DNA of 64,000 bases from Planctomycetota bacterium (GTDB lineage: Bacteria; Planctomycetota; B15-G4): NCBI GenBank assembly GCA_038212275.1, contig JBBQUR010000003.1:64001-128000 (forward strand), given 5' to 3'. Below are positions 51,120-57,521 of the stretch, in pieces. Position numbers and translations under genes: made by a program. The notes beneath the pieces are model-generated. The model saw only the letters and a program-made list of their open reading frames with translations, did no database searches and was not told the DNA's origin. Positions within the stretch are counted from its first letter, which is position 1. Every line of letters starts with the position of its first letter.

Positions 51120-52124
51120 TCAGCATCGCAGCCCGGCCGCATCGCGCCGCTCCACGAAGGCTTCCGGCTCGACCGCGCCCGGCGCGTAGACCAGTGTGAC
51201 CAGCGCCTCGGCGGCGCCGGCGCACACCTCGCCCACCGCGCGCGCGCGGGCCGCGAGCGCACCCTTGCGATCGGCCTTGTGGGGATCCTTGCCGTAGAAC
51301 GCCCCGCCGCCGATGGGCACGCCGGGCCCCGCGCCATCCACGACGAGCTTCTTGCCCGACAGCCCGTTGTCGCCGTGCGGCCCGCCGATGGAGAAGTCGC
51401 CCGCACCGTTGAGGTGCAGGTGCGCGGAGTCGAAGCGCGCCACGCCGGGCAGTGCCGCCTCCAGCTCCGCGCAGCCCGCGCGGATCACCGGCACGAGCAG
51501 CCGATGCTGCTCCTCGTACGAAAGCCCCGGCACGTGCTGGATCGAGAACACCAGCCGTGTCCAGGTGCACGTGAGCCGATGCCCCGCGGGAAACGTGTTG
51601 TCCCCCTGCAGCACCGGCAGCAGCTTGAAGTCCGGGCCGAAGGTCTGCGGCGCATGCTGCTCCCGCCATCGGCGCACGTGCTCTCCGAGGCGCAGCGCGA
51701 GCCAGTGCGCGGGCGGCAGGTAGTCCGTGCCCGCGTTGCCGCAGGCGTAGCCGACGCAGATGGCCTGGTCGTCGGAGAGGTGGCGCATCTCGCGCTCGTC
51801 CTGCGAAAGTGCTTCGGCGCACAGATCGTGCGTGACGATGAGCCGCTCCGGGTCGGGCGACCACAGGCCGCCGTAGCCCGCCGCGCGATACGCGGCGCGC
51901 GCGAAGCGCGGCAGGAACTCGTCCGGGTCGCCCGGGCCGTGCGGCCCCGCGGCGATGCGCCCGGTGACGAAGACCTTGTCGGTGGACACGGCCACCTCCA
52001 CGCCGACGAGCGCATCGGGATCGATGGCAATCGCGTGCTGCACGCAGGCCTCCGCGATGGCGTCGGCCAGGCGGTCCGGGTGACCCGGCGAGACGTATTC
52101 GGCGCAATGAACGGTGCGGGACAT
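51120..52124 (-). CDS. metK: Divergent methionine adenosyltransferase (MetK-like)
   Basis: AEYVSPGHPDRLAD, DDQAICVGYA, GGPHGDNGLSGKKLVVD, GGGAFYGKDPHKADR; AAGGAG RBS. Confidence 0.85.
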   Translation of the reverse strand: MSRTVHCAEYVSPGHPDRLADAIAEACVQHAIAIDPDALVGVEVAVSTDKVFVTGRIAAGPHGPGDPDEFLPRFARAAYRAAGYGGLWSPDPERLIVTHDLCAEALSQDEREMRHLSDDQAICVGYACGNAGTDYLPPAHWLALRLGEHVRRWREQHAPQTFGPDFKLLPVLQGDNTFPAGHRLTCTWTRLVFSIQHVPGLSYEEQHRLLVPVIRAGCAELEAALPGVARFDSAHLHLNGAGDFSIGGPHGDNGLSGKKLVVDGAGPGVPIGGGAFYGKDPHKADRKGALAARARAVGEVCAGAAEALVTLVYAPGAVEPEAFVERRDAAGLRC

Positions 52125-52156
52125 GCGAGGTGACTCCTTGGGGACATGCGGCGCGC

Positions 52157-53566
52157 TCAGGCGCCGCCGAGATCGGGAAGCAGTTCGACGTGGCGCGCTG
52201 CGGGAGCAAGGTCGTTGTGCGACGCGGCGCCGAGCGGCCGGTACAGGCCCACATACAGCGCCGTGCCGAGGCTGGTGAACGCGTCGGGCGCGACCGCGCC
52301 GACGTAGCCGTCGGTGATCAGCACGGTGCGCCGCGGCCGGCGCGTGCGCGGCAGCGCGGCGAGGTGCTGGAGGACGCAGCGGATGTCGGTGCCCAGCGTG
52401 TTGGCGAGGCGCTGACGCAGCAGATCCTGCGGCGACACCTCGCCGATCACGGTGCTGAACACGAAAAGCCGGATCGCGCGCGCCCGGTGCAGCGGCGCCA
52501 GCGCGCCCGCGAGTGGCCGCAGCGCGGCAGCCATCGAGCCGCTCACGTCCAGATAGACGTGCGCAACGGGCAGCGGTTCGCGACGCGTGCGCGGCGCGAG
52601 ACAGCTCCCGCGGTAGAGCAGCGGAGCGGCGCCGGTCAGCCGCCGCAGCGCGTGGGCGCGCCGATCGCCGGCCTGCGGCAGCACCGTTTCGATCTCCAGC
52701 GGCTGCACGGAGTGGAGCAGGCGGCGGCTGCCGTGCCACGCGTGCTGCTGCAGGCCGGCACGCGCCAGCAGGCGGCGGATCGCGGCGCGCAGCGCGCGCG
52801 TCGGGTCGGCCGGGGCACCGAGCATCCAGGACTTCACGGGGCGCCCCGTGTCGCGCCCGCCGAGGCGTTGCCGCGGAGGCGGCCAGCCCTCGACGACGCG
52901 GCGCAGCACGTCGCGCAGCGTCGCGTCGCGCGTCGCGGAGTCATCCCGCACGCCGTCACCGTGCTCGCCTTCGTGGTCGCCGAGCAGCACGGGCGATGTG
53001 TCCTCGCCGTCGTCGAGCAGCGCGGTGAGCAGCTCGAAGATCTCGTGGTACGTGATGTCGCCAGTGCGCCCGTAGAGCAGGTCGTGGATGCGGCGCTCCT
53101 CGGGTCCCGCGTCGGCGGGCAGCGGCTGCGGGCGTTCGGGCCAGCCGGGCGCCGGGCGCAGCAGCCGCCCGGGGAACTCCTCCCATGAGTTGAGCGCCTG
53201 GAAGAAGGACGTGAACTCGCGCCCCGGAAACTGCTGGCAGAGCAGCGCGTTGATGACCGCGTCGAAGGCGAGGTTGTGCGCGAGCGTGGCGCGCGGGAAC
53301 AGCCGTGTGTGCCCGAGCACCACGTGCTGCAGCTCGTGCATGACCAGCAGGAAGAGGTGCTCGTCCGTCCGGCACGACGCCTCGATGAAGCGCGGATTCA
53401 GCAGCATCCGCGGGCGCTCGACGCACTCGATGGCGGCGGTGGGCACGTCCTCCGTGCAGGCGATGTCCACGAGCGAAAGGAGCTTCTCCATCTGGTAACT
53501 CGCGGCCGGGATCACGGAGTAGATGCGCGCGCGCAGCCGGGCGGCGTCGGAGTCGTGCGTGGTCAT
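52157..53566 (-). CDS. DUF2201-like HExxH metallopeptidase + VWA domain protein
   Basis: MHELQH, NLAFDAVIN, MIDAS YLDVSGSM, GTD, LITDG. Confidence 0.85.
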   Translation of the reverse strand: MTTHDSDAARLRARIYSVIPAASYQMEKLLSLVDIACTEDVPTAAIECVERPRMLLNPRFIEASCRTDEHLFLLVMHELQHVVLGHTRLFPRATLAHNLAFDAVINALLCQQFPGREFTSFFQALNSWEEFPGRLLRPAPGWPERPQPLPADAGPEERRIHDLLYGRTGDITYHEIFELLTALLDDGEDTSPVLLGDHEGEHGDGVRDDSATRDATLRDVLRRVVEGWPPPRQRLGGRDTGRPVKSWMLGAPADPTRALRAAIRRLLARAGLQQHAWHGSRRLLHSVQPLEIETVLPQAGDRRAHALRRLTGAAPLLYRGSCLAPRTRREPLPVAHVYLDVSGSMAAALRPLAGALAPLHRARAIRLFVFSTVIGEVSPQDLLRQRLANTLGTDIRCVLQHLAALPRTRRPRRTVLITDGYVGAVAPDAFTSLGTALYVGLYRPLGAASHNDLAPAARHVELLPDLGGA

Positions 53567-54264
53567 GGCGTCCCCTCGGGTTGCCGCGCGCCGGGGTGTG
53601 GCTTCGGAGCCGCGGCCGCCCGACGCCTGCGCGTCCGGACTTGCGCGGTGAGAAAACGCGGGTCATCCACCGCGAGGTCGGCCTCGAAGAGGTGACGCCA
53701 GGTGCGGTCCGGCGCACGCGACGCGATGGAGAGTGCGCCGACGCGCCGCTCGAGCACCGCGAGGGTGAGCGCGAGGTCTGCGCACGGTGCCCAGACGTCT
53801 CCGGGAGCCCAGTCTTCGGGTGGAAACCAGCCCATGAGCACGCCGCTCGGCCTGCAGCGCGATGCCCCGTGCTGTCCTGCCGCGTCCGCCGCGCATGGCG
53901 CGGAGTCGAGCAGCGCGCGATCGAGGCAGCCGGCGCGTGTGGCCGAGGCGAGCAGGCGCTCGATGCTGCCCTTCCAGCGTCTCTGCGCCTTCCGCACCAG
54001 CGCGGCGCGCAGGGAGGATGGCACGGGTCCGTATCTGGCAATCTCTTCGCGTGTTGCCATGCTGGTCGGAGCGGACGCGCGCGCCGGCACTGCCGCATTC
54101 GCCACCAACCTGGCGGCGCGCGCTCGCGGAGCCGTGTCCAGCAGGCCCTGCGCGAGCAGCGCATGCGCGAGGCTGAACACCGTCACCCGTCCCCAGACCG
54201 GCTTCTGGAGCGACGTGACCTGCGTGCGCGGGGGCGCGCTCATGTTGTGGAGCCACGTCGTCAT
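53563..54264 (-). CDS. Hypothetical protein
   Basis: ATGA overlaps at both ends within the operon; no family recognised. Confidence 0.55.
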   Translation of the reverse strand: MTTWLHNMSAPPRTQVTSLQKPVWGRVTVFSLAHALLAQGLLDTAPRARAARLVANAAVPARASAPTSMATREEIARYGPVPSSLRAALVRKAQRRWKGSIERLLASATRAGCLDRALLDSAPCAADAAGQHGASRCRPSGVLMGWFPPEDWAPGDVWAPCADLALTLAVLERRVGALSIASRAPDRTWRHLFEADLAVDDPRFLTAQVRTRRRRAAAAPKPHPGARQPEGTP

Positions 54265-55847
54265 CGCGGGCCCTCGACGGACAGGCGTTCCGCGAGGCGC
54301 AGGCGCTGCCAGAGTTGCCGGAAGGTGTCGAGCACGCGCTGCGGCGTCGTCGTCCCGAAGCCATCCGGCAGGAGCGACTCGAGCAGATTGCGGGCATAGC
54401 CGTTGTGCACGCGTGCCGGATGGCCGTCGTCCACCGGCAACTCGGCGGCGAGGCGACCGATCTCGCGCGCCGTGTTCACCTGCGCGGCCGACACCGACAG
54501 CGAGCGCACCGCGGGCTGCAGCGCGCGCCGCGCGTCGCGCGCCAGCGTCTCGAAGGCGGTGGCGTGCAGGCGCCCGTCGCGGTGCAGCGCGAGGTGCAGC
54601 GCCAGGGCCACGGCCGTGCGGCGCGCGGGCTCCGTCACCGACGCGACGCCGTCGAGCACGAGCGGCGTCAGCTCGTCGGCCCCGAAGCCGGGCAACTCGA
54701 TGGCGCGGAGCGCGCGCTCGAGCGGGTCGGGCGTGGCGAGGAGCGCGCGCCACGGGTCGTCGTCGGCCAGGCCGCTGAGCTTCCACGCGTGGCGGTGCAG
54801 AGCGAGCAGCGCGGCGCGGTCTGCACGGCCGTGTCGCGCGAGCTCCGGGTCACCGTGCAGGACCGCGAGCCACAACGATGTGTTCCAGTCCACCTCGCCG
54901 ATGGGCGCGGTCGGATGTGCGGCGCGTTGCAGCGTGACGCGCGCTGCCTGCAGCGCGAGCGCCGAGCGCAGCAGCATCGTCAGGCGGCGCGTGGAGAACG
55001 CCGGCTGCTTGCAGGCTTCGCGCTGCGCGGCCAGCGCGAGGAAGTAGTTCGCGAGACGGTCCGGCACCGAGCGCGAGAAGGCCGCGAACAACTGCTCGGC
55101 TCGCGCCACAAGATCCGGCAACTCCACCGGAAACTCGTGCCGTCCGTGGAACTGGTCGAGCAGGATCGAGCGGCGCTCGTGATCCGTGAGGTCGGCCCAG
55201 GTCGGCACCTCGACGAGGAAGGCAAAGCGGTCCGCGAGCGCAGGGTCGAGCGGCTCGGCGCCGAGATAGGCGTCGTCGTCCGCGCCGTCGGCATCGTCCG
55301 CGGCGGGCGGATTCATGGCCGCCCAGCGGTAGCGCAGCTTCTCGAGCAGCACGCCCTGCACGCGCCGTTCGTGCACGATCGGGAACAGCTTGTTCGCGAG
55401 GTCCGGCCGGCAGCGCGACAACTCGTCGATGAACACCACCTCGGCGTCCCAGATCGCCGTCGGCGTCGCGATGTAGCGCAGGTGGGTAGCGCTTTCGTCG
55501 GGCACCGGCACGCCGACGAGGTCGTCGTAGTTGAGCAGGCTCGCGTTGTAGAAGCGGTACTCCAGGCGCAGCGCCTGCGCCAGCCGCTCCAGCAGAAAGC
55601 TCTTGGCCGTGCCGTGCCGCCCGATGAGCAGCATCGGCTCCGCGCTCGCGAGCGCCGCGAGCACGACCGGCTCGAGCGCGGTCCAGCCGTGCAGCCCGAG
55701 AGGCTCCGTGAGCAGCGAGGGGATGCACATCGTGGGTCGCACCTGCGCCTCGTCTGGCGCCAGAAGGGGCGTCGGCGGGGGCGCCGGTGCGGCCGCGCCA
55801 TCGGATCCGGCTGCGGTCCGGGCTGCAGTTCGGACGCGCGGACTCAC
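54261..55847 (-). CDS. MoxR-type AAA+ ATPase
   Basis: Walker A GRHGTAKS, Walker B VVFIDE, AAMNP, PLDPALADRF, STRR; GTG overlaps upstream stop. Confidence 0.88.
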   Translation of the reverse strand: MSPRVRTAARTAAGSDGAAAPAPPPTPLLAPDEAQVRPTMCIPSLLTEPLGLHGWTALEPVVLAALASAEPMLLIGRHGTAKSFLLERLAQALRLEYRFYNASLLNYDDLVGVPVPDESATHLRYIATPTAIWDAEVVFIDELSRCRPDLANKLFPIVHERRVQGVLLEKLRYRWAAMNPPAADDADGADDDAYLGAEPLDPALADRFAFLVEVPTWADLTDHERRSILLDQFHGRHEFPVELPDLVARAEQLFAAFSRSVPDRLANYFLALAAQREACKQPAFSTRRLTMLLRSALALQAARVTLQRAAHPTAPIGEVDWNTSLWLAVLHGDPELARHGRADRAALLALHRHAWKLSGLADDDPWRALLATPDPLERALRAIELPGFGADELTPLVLDGVASVTEPARRTAVALALHLALHRDGRLHATAFETLARDARRALQPAVRSLSVSAAQVNTAREIGRLAAELPVDDGHPARVHNGYARNLLESLLPDGFGTTTPQRVLDTFRQLWQRLRLAERLSVEGPR

Positions 55848-56068
55848 GAGCGTACCGCCGCGGTCGGCTGTGCCAGGTGCGCGAGGAGTGCGTCGCGCAG
55901 GAGGATGGCCTCGTCGCGCCGCTGCGTGCGCAGCGATCGGCGCACGCGGCGGACCCGGCCGTCAAGCGTCTCGAGCGTGTAGTGGATCCACCAGACGCCG
56001 TGGTTGTTCCACAGGTGGTGGAGCGGATTGCCGCCGGTGATGCGGAGGGACAGGCGCGCTGCGCGCAT
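55844..56068 (-). CDS. Small basic conserved protein (NPxHHLWNNxGxWW)
   Basis: 74 aa; AAAGGAA RBS; first gene after the riboswitch. Confidence 0.7.
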   Translation of the reverse strand: MRAARLSLRITGGNPLHHLWNNHGVWWIHYTLETLDGRVRRVRRSLRTQRRDEAILLRDALLAHLAQPTAAVRS

Positions 56069-56095
56069 GGTGCGTGTTCCTTTCGGTCACGCACC
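56069..56095 (-). promoter_or_regulatory. RBS-sequestering hairpin (putative riboswitch expression platform)
   Basis: Transcript GGUGCGUG-ACC-GAAA-GGAA-CACGCACC-AUG: 8-bp stem abutting the start codon with the SD inside. Confidence 0.55.
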
Positions 56096-56164
56096 AGAAA
56101 CACGGCCGCGCGTCGTCGCGCTGTCGTCGGAAGTTTCGTTCGCCGGGGCGCTCACGCCCCGCGC

Positions 56165-56260
56165 GCATCCCTCCGGCGTACGCCGCCGGAGGAAACCACC
56201 TTGGCCTTCCGGGCCAGGTTGGCCGACCCCTCCCGCGAGGGAGGAGCCGTTCCTGATGCT
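56165..56260 (-). ncRNA. SAM-I (S-box) clan riboswitch, variant
   Basis: P1 GCAUC/GAUGC; J1/2 AGGAA; P2 CGGCUCCUCCC-UCGC-GGGAGGGGUCG; P3 CCAACCU-GGCC-CGGAA-GGCC-AAGGUGG; P4 CUCCGGCG-GCGUA-CGCCGGAG; metK-like gene downstream; TAGAGT -10 box at 56268-56273. Confidence 0.75.
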
Positions 56261-56378
56261 GGTGCGGACTCTAACCTGCCGCGCCGGATCGCGCACCGGT
56301 CATGTGTGTCATGAAATCCGGTGCGGCCGGCAGCCCCGCTCCCGTGTCACGGCGCTGACAGAATGTGTGCCCGCTGGT

Positions 56379-56411
<33 letters not shown>

Positions 56412-57020
56412 TGGATCTGCCGTTCCGGGACATCGGGAGCATGATCCTGCGCCTGCAGCTGCGCGATGATCGGGGCGCGCGGGGCATCGGCCTGCTCGAG
56501 CGGCCCCGCACTCATCTGCCGGCGGTCTTCCGAAATCATTCCCCGTCGGGGGCTCGGCGGCGCCGTGCGCCGGGCGGCGTGACTTCCACGTCCACGCTGG
56601 TCTCGCCGTCGCCGGCCGCGCTCTTCAGCACGATGCGCGCGGTCCACCATTCGCGAGTGTCGAAGTCGCACCTGGCGACGTAGCGCAATCTGCCGCGCGA
56701 CACAACGGCGACACCGGCGGAGATCCAGCGCCGGGGCGGGGATGAGCGCGTGGCCGTCGTGCTGTCCGCCAACTCGGCCATGGCCCACCTCTGCCATGAC
56801 ATCGGACGAATGCTCCTGCAGAGCCGGGAATGCGCGGCCGGGGAGCCAGGGTGATCGACCGGCTCGCCGCGGATCCCCGGCTCCAACGTGGCGTGGAGCA
56901 GGCGCTCGTCGATCTCGGGGAGCGTTTCCGCCTGGAGCCGGGCAGCGGCTTCGCCTCCGCGTGCTCAACGCACGAAGACCGAACGATGACGCGGCGAGCC
57001 GCGCTCGTACAAATCCCTTG

Positions 57021-57521
57021 CTATCGTTTTCGACGCATCGCGGCGGGTCGCGATCTGGTTGCGACATCGCGCGTCCGCAGCTCGACATGGCAGCCCAGCA
57101 CGCCCAGCAGCTCGATCAGTTGCCGCAGCGACGTGCGTGGTTTGCCGGTGTCGAGCACTCGGTAGAGCTGAGCAGCCGAGGTGCCGAGTCGCCGGCAGAT
57201 CTCGCGGTGGGAGAGGAGTGTCTTTTCCATGCGCCGCTGAGCCTCCAACGTCAGCTCATAGGCCAAGATGTCCGCCATGAAGGCCGGGTCCTTGTTCTCG
57301 TCGAGGACAGCATCCAGGTGGAGCGATCCCTCGCGTCCCGAGGCGAGCTCGTACGTGAAGGCCTCGCGCCCGAGTTCCGGGTCCACGTAGACGCGGACGA
57401 TGCGGTCCCTGGAGGTCGGCTTCGGTGTGACCTTGGCGTAGGGAAAGCGCAACAGGCCCTTGGGTGTCGCGACCTCGAAGGCCTTGCTGCGGTTGTTGGC
57501 GCGCACGCTGCGGATCTTCAA
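57021..57521 (-). CDS. Putative antitoxin: DUF2442-like N-terminus + C-terminal HTH
   Basis: TTG start overlapping upstream stop; HTH SHREICRRLGTSAAQLYRVLD. Confidence 0.7.
   Translation of the reverse strand: MKIRSVRANNRSKAFEVATPKGLLRFPYAKVTPKPTSRDRIVRVYVDPELGREAFTYELASGREGSLHLDAVLDENKDPAFMADILAYELTLEAQRRMEKTLLSHREICRRLGTSAAQLYRVLDTGKPRTSLRQLIELLGVLGCHVELRTRDVATRSRPAAMRRKR

Follow-up and report, generated by a model that had tools for sequence, protein, structure and literature searches.

The closest described systems are the SAM riboswitches of the SAM-I (S box, RF00162), SAM-IV (RF00634) and SAM-I/IV (RF01725) classes. In the available text of PMC6890682, the SAM-I/IV class is described with an unsplit P2, without PK-1 and with a P4 helix, and it has P5 and PK-2 in common with SAM-IV. 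The 2010 description included variants without an internal loop in P2 (available part of PMC2864571), and the accessible figure text of its supplement draws P4-I (3–23 nt), P4-IV and a pseudoknot, gives ARGAG as the J1/2 consensus and labels A45, G11, U7, U88, U57 and G58 as contacts. The solved SAM-I/IV example is env87 (PDB 4L81, as cited in the available passages of PMC5393176 and PMC8525861), for which the accessible portion of PMC8525861 names U4, G8 and A25 as SAM contacts. A literature search on SAM riboswitches combined with planctomycetes returned only the 2010 survey, and the search combined with verrucomicrobia returned none.

Here we analysed the window, that is, the whole 64,000-nt stretch of DNA from a Planctomycetota bacterium, for which a preliminary description made from the letters had proposed a minimal SAM-I variant. 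The element found at this locus is real and is a divergent SAM-I/IV riboswitch, a known class. Very probably it is a switch of this class that shuts off translation when S-adenosylmethionine (SAM) is plentiful, and the first gene under its control encodes a protein of 74 amino acids.

A divergent SAM-I/IV riboswitch with a complete layout

The element lies on the minus strand, with the aptamer at 56259–56128 and the expression platform extending down to the AUG at 56068. Scanning of the whole window at the Rfam gathering thresholds gave no match. In a permissive scan of 55900–56450 (551 nt), RF01725 was the best Rfam family (25.1 bits, E 0.092), and its alignment at 56264–56125 covered all 99 model positions from end to end. 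The expectation that covariance models would score the element weakly was right, as 25.1 bits is under the curated gathering score of 41.1 bits for RF01725, and this low score counts against the SAM-I/IV assignment. In the 4.65-Mb genome the window locus was the only RF01725 match. For RF00162, 150 of 227 candidates in the genome were scored and none matched at E ≤ 10. RF00634 gave no match at the window locus, its sole match in the genome being a weak one on another contig (19.8 bits). Among the SAM-I, SAM-IV and SAM-I/IV models, the locus was matched by SAM-I/IV alone, below the gathering score. The fold energy of the leader was 4.3 sd better than that of 200 shuffles, none of which was as good (0/200).

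The aptamer is made up of the following parts, in the order of the transcript:

56259–56255 with 56169–56165, minus strand: P1, GCAUC paired with GAUGC (from the RF01725 alignment and pair counts on the six-leader alignment described below)
56254–56250, minus strand: J1/2, AGGAA (from the sequence)
56249–56239 with 56234–56224, minus strand: P2, an unbroken helix of 11 bp with a 4-nt loop
56223–56213 with 56205–56195, minus strand: P3, CCAACC...GGUGG, with an AA/U internal loop and a 7-nt terminal loop
56192–56184 with 56178–56170, minus strand: P4, a 9-bp hairpin inside the junction
56164–56142, minus strand: P5, a bulged 9-bp hairpin 3′ of P1
56141–56134, minus strand: linker GAACGAAA, between P5 and the 3′ strand of PK-2
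56211–56206 with 56133–56128, minus strand: PK-2, P3 loop CGGAAG with CUUCCG (from complementarity and covariation)

Read on the minus strand, P1 GCAUC/GAUGC, J1/2 AGGAA, the plain P2 and the four-way junction are all present as the preliminary description had given them, and its proposal of a SAM-clan aptamer is borne out by RF01725 as the best family together with the full SAM-I/IV layout. The P2 helix has no internal loop, its 4-nt loop is variable, and J3/4 consists of two nucleotides, UU. Other parts of that description have to be revised. The CCAACC...GGUGG of P3 exists as a sequence, but it is the ordinary consensus of the SAM-I/IV model and not a special compensatory change. The AGGAA of J1/2, which had been set against AAGAG, departs from the family consensus ARGAG at the last base alone (A for G). 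A pseudoknot had been judged not to be evident; PK-2 as well as P5 were overlooked, and both covary. A P4 within the junction, the external P5 and the PK-2 pseudoknot give the element the complete SAM-I/IV layout, which is at odds with a minimal SAM-I variant devoid of a pseudoknot.

With the SAM-I/IV class the window element shares P1, a J1/2 with the conserved G, a plain P2, the P3 AA/U loop, a P4 in the junction, a P5 after P1, an AACGAA-type linker, a PK-2 that joins the P3 loop to the 3′ tail and, within the same subclade, an association with metK. The env87 RNA, as given in the available part of PMC5393176, has the same order of elements, AACGAA linker included. The window element differs from the class in its P4, whose 9-bp, 23-nt hairpin is at the upper end of the 3–23 nt drawn in 2010, and in its P5, which has 9 bp and a bulge whereas that of the class has 3–5 bp. 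The final base of J1/2 is A in the window and G in the consensus, which counts against the assignment. Moreover, the 3′ strand of PK-2 is not the ribosome binding site in the window, where a separate downstream hairpin is the sequestering structure. SAM-I has the four-way junction P1–P4 and the same binding-pocket nucleotides, but the window element lacks the kink-turn or internal loop of P2 and PK-1 (its P2 loop is variable and its J3/4 short, as noted above) and carries P5 and PK-2 instead. In SAM-IV, too, a P5 hairpin follows P1 and PK-2 joins the P3 loop to the 3′ tail; according to the available text of PMC6890682 SAM-IV lacks P4 and has P2 split into P2a and P2b with a PK-1, whereas P4 is present and P2 unsplit in the window.

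Covariation in related leaders and the extent of the subclade

A blastn search of 61 related genomes found the leader in five genomes besides the window's own. With the pseudoknot counted, the structure on the alignment of these six leaders comprises 49 pairs. Of the cells, 93.8% were paired, and 21 of the 49 pairs were changed on both sides, so that covariation, which the preliminary description had suggested looking for in homologous leaders, was found. None of 500 shuffles equalled this result and the slid controls were 39–52% paired, although the shuffle controls overstate the support because the leaders are mutually related. Pairs changed on both sides numbered 8 of 11 in P2, 7 of 9 in P4 and 3 of 9 in P5. 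All cells of the six PK-2 pairs were paired (100%), and three of the six were changed on both sides. P1 and eight of the nine P3 pairs were invariant and hence gave no covariation in this alignment; since the binding pocket is expected to stay constant, this invariance says nothing either way. Among 35 distinct metagenome leaders, 29 had a helix of at least 5 bp between the P3 loop and the tail directly after a GAAC(A/G)AA linker, with 16 different helix sequences. At the level of sequence, covariation and conservation establish the predicted helices, the pseudoknot and both of the alternative pairings of the expression platform that are described below.

A covariance model built from the six-leader alignment (R1) detected the element in 6 of the 42 genomes of the order, the window's own counted, at 117–161 bits. 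In a 151-genome sample of the phylum it reached two further families at 93 and 82 bits, which have the same layout with different P2, P4, P5 and pseudoknot sequences. A weak R1 match of 31.6 bits in genome G020 reads like coding sequence and was dropped, and the other matches below 30 bits (G183, G060 and a second G020 site) were left out.

An exact-pattern scan with one genome per species returned at least 121 loci. Most of the matches listed were from Proteobacteria and had a short hairpin of 12–18 nt that separates P3 from the 3′ strand of P1. In this short form the external hairpin is short as well, the linker is of the AACGAA type and the tail can pair with the P3 loop; the layout is the same as that of the window, with P4 and P5 shorter in Proteobacteria. 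The Planctomycetota/Planctomycetia records among the matches listed had a long P4 (25–29 nt) and a long P5, as in the window. Five pattern matches (L047, L085, L144, L149 and L151) resembled coding DNA and were rejected. All nine short-form loci scored pass the RF01725 gathering score (55.7–77.4 bits). None of the 11 long-form loci of the Planctomycetota type does, which counts against the SAM-I/IV assignment, as does the lack of any SAM-clan match at E ≤ 1 for 10 of 20 representative metagenome leaders. When 20 representative leaders of the small gene were scored, eight passed (41.8–48.0 bits) and two were just under the gathering score; these passing leaders provide a continuum that joins the window element to accepted members of the family. 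As a separate observation, a record from a Xanthobacteraceae MAG (L056) contains tandem RF01725 matches at 1469–1571 and 1658–1763 (73.9 and 64.5 bits).

Conserved contact positions and the probable ligand

In the window, the U of P1, the G at position 3 of J1/2 and the first of the two As in CAACC correspond to U4, G8 and A25 of env87, the contacts named in the accessible portion of the structural literature, and all three are invariant in the six leaders. Aligned to the model consensus, the P1 U, the J1/2 G and the P3 AA/U loop with its flanking C-G are invariant in the six leaders as well. In two other records (L091 and G084), a riboswitch of the same subclade directly precedes canonical metK. 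Since the contact positions are kept and the same subclade precedes canonical metK, SAM is the likely ligand.

The members of the subclade have AGGAA, UGGAC or CCGAG in J1/2 and not ARGAG, they score under the RF01725 gathering score, and the small protein that is regulated has no known SAM link. These features would suit a derivative of SAM-I/IV that keeps the fold and senses SAH or another adenosyl or methionine derivative, but such a change of ligand is improbable, because all contact positions reported in the available parts of the cited papers are kept, members of the same subclade stand before canonical metK, and, for leaders of the same gene, the scores form a continuum up to accepted RF01725 members.

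Genes downstream of the riboswitch

The genes that follow the element on the minus strand are:

55844–56068, minus strand: gene of the 74-aa protein, weakly DUF6538-like with an integrase-arm-like predicted fold; first regulated gene
54261–55730, minus strand: MoxR-like AAA+ ATPase (Pfam AAA_5, 5.8e-13)
52157–53566, minus strand: DUF2201_N putative metallopeptidase-like and VWA protein (weak Pfam matches below the cut-off)
51120–52124, minus strand: divergent MetK-like (SAM synthetase-like) paralogue with the Pfam S-AdoMet_synt N, M and C domains

The MoxR-like gene likely starts at ATG 55730, in a frame open from 55847, and its product is 51% identical, from 55712, to the homologue in genome G033. 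The VWA/DUF2201-like protein is 49% identical to its G033 homologue. Between the MoxR-like and the VWA/DUF2201-like genes, the stretch at 53567–54260 (minus strand, about 690 nt) showed no similarity by tblastn to residues 1–261 of the G033 homologue, which is longer. This stretch might represent an N-terminal part that has diverged, a small gene of its own or a frameshift. The MetK-like paralogue scored 135.5 bits with TIGR01034 against a cut-off of 309.4, and the canonical metK of this genome is located on another contig (C4:195458–196570) with 569.9 bits. The small gene is missing from this position in G033, where the riboswitch directly precedes these three genes in unchanged order, so that MetK-like operons are preceded by the riboswitch both there and in the window. 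The MoxR-like, VWA-like and MetK-like genes may be controlled together with the first gene. The gene order MoxR-like, VWA/DUF2201-like and MetK-like, as at 51120–55730, is conserved in a genome from another family of the order (L170, 236–5047).

The 74-aa protein and its linkage to the leader

No link to methionine or SAM is known for the first regulated gene, and this counts against the reading of the element as a SAM switch. The product of the gene matched no Pfam family at E ≤ 0.01. It belongs to a sharply conserved family, with 15 invariant positions in 26 sequences. The few named members are hypothetical proteins from Verrucomicrobiota or Opitutales. With DUF6538, 8 of 10 members matched at E ≤ 1 (best 4.5e-4), and the top relative reached 26.1 bits against a cut-off of 27; a literature search on DUF6538 found none. 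The AlphaFold model of the protein (pLDDT 81.4) has four strands and one helix. Foldseek matched no PDB structure at E ≤ 0.001, and a structural search with VIA-align gave Z scores of 4–4.7 at most, in which the integrase arm-type 3jtz_A (Z 4.5), lambda Int (Z 4.0–4.2) and an AP2 domain were tied with PX domains. The nearest named language-model clusters were integrase N-terminal DNA-binding domains (0.89–0.90), and a profile search of the PDB sequences returned CgnE alone (E 0.23).

Like the arm-type domains of tyrosine integrases (DUF6538, Arm-DNA-bind), the protein is predicted to have four strands and a helix, and it matches the HPI and lambda integrase arm domains weakly in structure. It differs from them in that the domain occurs alone, or fused to an AAA_5 ATPase or a receiver domain, and in that all profile matches are under the curated cut-offs; in the searches run, no fusion to a recombinase catalytic domain was found. 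The fusions consist of P0055 and P0056 (624 and 591 aa), in which the domain is at the N-terminus of a MoxR-like AAA_5 ATPase, and P0052, in which it is joined to a receiver domain and PF14332. The N-terminal extension of P0055 resembles read-through of the riboswitch region. An arm-type DNA-binding fold, as suggested by these model-based comparisons, is a lead and not a finding.

A metagenome scan based on the protein, in which the RNA was not consulted, confirmed 559 of 600 candidates as relatives, and 80 loci were kept. R1 matched on the strand of the small gene at 54 of the 80 loci and at 51 of the 70 with at least 300 nt of upstream DNA, and the median distance from the end of the match to the small gene was 106 nt. 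By eye, a related aptamer was recognized at eight of the remaining 19 of these 70 loci, and seven were without one. At six loci (L175, L176, L195, L208, L219 and L240) the small gene is preceded, on its own strand, by a tRNA gene about 400–600 nt away.

This tight coupling of small gene and leader, seen at 51 of the 70 loci with enough upstream DNA, and the resemblance of the modelled protein to a nucleic-acid-binding domain could also fit a structured leader that senses no metabolite and is, for example, bound by the small protein itself (autoregulation through the RNA) or by another factor, its resemblance to SAM-I/IV being inherited but unused. We consider this very improbable. The binding-pocket positions and PK-2 are strongly conserved, the same type of RNA stands before metK and AAA genes without the small gene (L091, G084 and G033), and at five loci the small gene is kept although no aptamer is present.

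Putative promoter and translational expression platform

The control region of the SAM-I/IV riboswitch contains the following features:

56268–56296, minus strand: putative promoter, with a -35-like GTGCGC at 56296–56291, a 17-nt spacer and a -10-like TAGAGT at 56273–56268
56101–56127, minus strand: variable spacer hairpin between aptamer and expression platform
56091–56100, minus strand: switching segment UUUCUGGUGC, which can pair with the P1 5′ strand and J1/2 (56259–56250) or, as the 5′ arm 56096–56088, with the start-codon region
56066–56096, minus strand: sequestering hairpin, 56096–56088 with 56076–56068, with the SD GGA (56080–56078) in its loop and the AUG at 56068–56066

TAGAGT is present upstream of P1 as had been noted, at a spacing of 8 nt and not 7. 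From this -10-like box the transcript is predicted to start at about 56263–56260. A strict sigma-70 promoter scan returned none; a TTGCxx-17-TAnnnT layout is also found in the related leaders.

The spacer hairpin folds as such in the window, and in the alignment its length and sequence vary among the leaders, with L007 missing it. The sequestering hairpin is part of the MFE structure and has nine pairs that cover the spacer and the A of the AUG. In the six leaders it was 98.1% paired, and four of its nine pairs were changed on both sides. The start-codon hairpin of the preliminary description is accordingly present, with nine pairs in place of 8 bp and with the GGA of the SD in the apical loop. 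The alternative pairing of the switching segment (56100–56091) with 56259–56250 was paired in 95% of 60 cells, compared with 27–50% when slid. Its P1 5′ strand/J1/2 side is invariant in the close set, and covariation was sought in more distant leaders. A complement of at least 8 nt to the leader's own P1 5′ strand and J1/2 was present downstream of the aptamer in 33 of 48 distinct metagenome leaders, in which the two sides of the anti-sequestor change together (GCAUUCCGA with UCGGGAUGC, GCAUCGGGAA with UUCCCGGUGC, and CAUCACGA with UCGUGAUG). Sequestor and anti-sequestor pairings are thus both supported, in agreement with the translational expression platform that had been claimed.

When P1 was enforced, the energy was -121.1 kcal/mol and the hairpin was closed; when the alternative helix was enforced, it was -119.6 kcal/mol and the AUG region was open, so that the two conformers are nearly isoenergetic. 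A pairing swap between a closed-AUG and an open-AUG conformer is the usual logic of a translational off-switch. In the bound state, SAM would fix P1 and the PK-2 pseudoknot, and the freed 56100–56091 would form the 9-bp hairpin over the spacer and the AUG of the 74-aa gene, on which the ribosome could not start. In the unbound state, the P1 5′ strand and J1/2 (56259–56250) would pair with 56100–56091, leaving the hairpin open for translation. The direction of the switch, with SAM turning translation off, is inferred from these pairings. Transcription termination was set aside because there is no U-tract after P5. Three terminator-like sites were rejected, as they are on the other strand and are a mere mirror image of the start-codon hairpin.

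A different anti-sequestrator had been suggested in CGCACCAG (56266–56259). This segment is indeed complementary to CUGGUGCG (56097–56090), but in six homologues only 72.9% of the cells were paired, with no compensatory change and no better than shuffles, and three pairs were broken in three to five of the six. It lies at or before the predicted transcript start, and the conserved alternative partner of the 5′ arm of the hairpin is the P1 5′ strand with J1/2. A minimal SAM-I variant without peripheral tertiary contacts, using this 8-nt complementarity from a start further upstream of 56266, which the present data would allow, therefore has next to no likelihood in view of this pairing record, the start predicted by the -10-like box at 56273–56268, the covarying PK-2 and P5, and the lack of any RF00162 match at E ≤ 10 among the 150 of 227 genome candidates that were scored.

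A DNA box upstream of the putative promoter

Upstream of the putative promoter of this SAM-I/IV leader lies a further element:

56306–56312, minus strand: DNA box ATGACAC (consensus cTATGACACa), 9 nt upstream of the -35-like hexamer

Of 83 parsed leaders, 67 carried the ATGACAC box on the upstream side of P1, at a distance of 40–80 nt. In the metagenome upstream regions (L173–L252), the 350 nt before the small gene contained it at 61 of 70 loci, compared with 0 of 63 and 4 of 65 control stretches. The cTATGACACa box occurs in either orientation, a short way ahead of the -35 for the small gene. Five small-gene loci without an aptamer retain it, and it is absent where metK or the AAA gene directly follows the riboswitch. 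This box is a possible operator. In the genome the ATGACAC 7-mer has 166 copies, approximately the number given by a rough reckoning from base composition, and in a search for a box regulon the promoter-like layout was found at the window only, with none upstream of canonical metK. We considered reading the box as part of a leader peptide, in a frame of 13 codons whose end falls in the -10 box, and rejected this because the peptides are unconserved and both orientations of the box occur. Three copies of a 12-nt unit GGTGCTGGAGCT lie at about 56375–56411 (minus strand), immediately before the promoter region; these repeats form a Gly-Ala run in the ORF 56309–57088, which has no Pfam match.

It is conceivable, though on balance unlikely, that there is a two-layer circuit of which the riboswitch forms the RNA half. 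The riboswitch would gate production of a small DNA-binding regulator, a domesticated integrase-arm domain, and this regulator would bind the cTATGACACa box beside its own promoter and work with the MoxR-like ATPase, its fusion partner in some organisms.

Significance

The riboswitch class is already known, and what is new is the gene context of riboswitch, 74-aa protein and DNA box. A Planctomycetota-type subclade of SAM-I/IV lies under the Rfam threshold (0 of the 11 loci tested pass), and SAM regulation is consequently under-counted in these phyla; in genomes of the same phylum, R1 recovers leaders of the subclade at 82–161 bits. Long P4 and P5 helices are tolerated by the class, which also includes a member with a separate sequestering hairpin in place of the PK-2 strand. 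An uncharacterised, widespread small protein is flagged as part of a SAM-responsive gene set, and the MoxR-like/VWA-like/MetK-like operon is flagged in the same set. The two-layer circuit, if true, would be placed across bacteria of the Planctomycetota and Verrucomicrobiota types, and the SAM level would be relayed through an undescribed protein family to transcription or to the MoxR/VWA/MetK-like machine.
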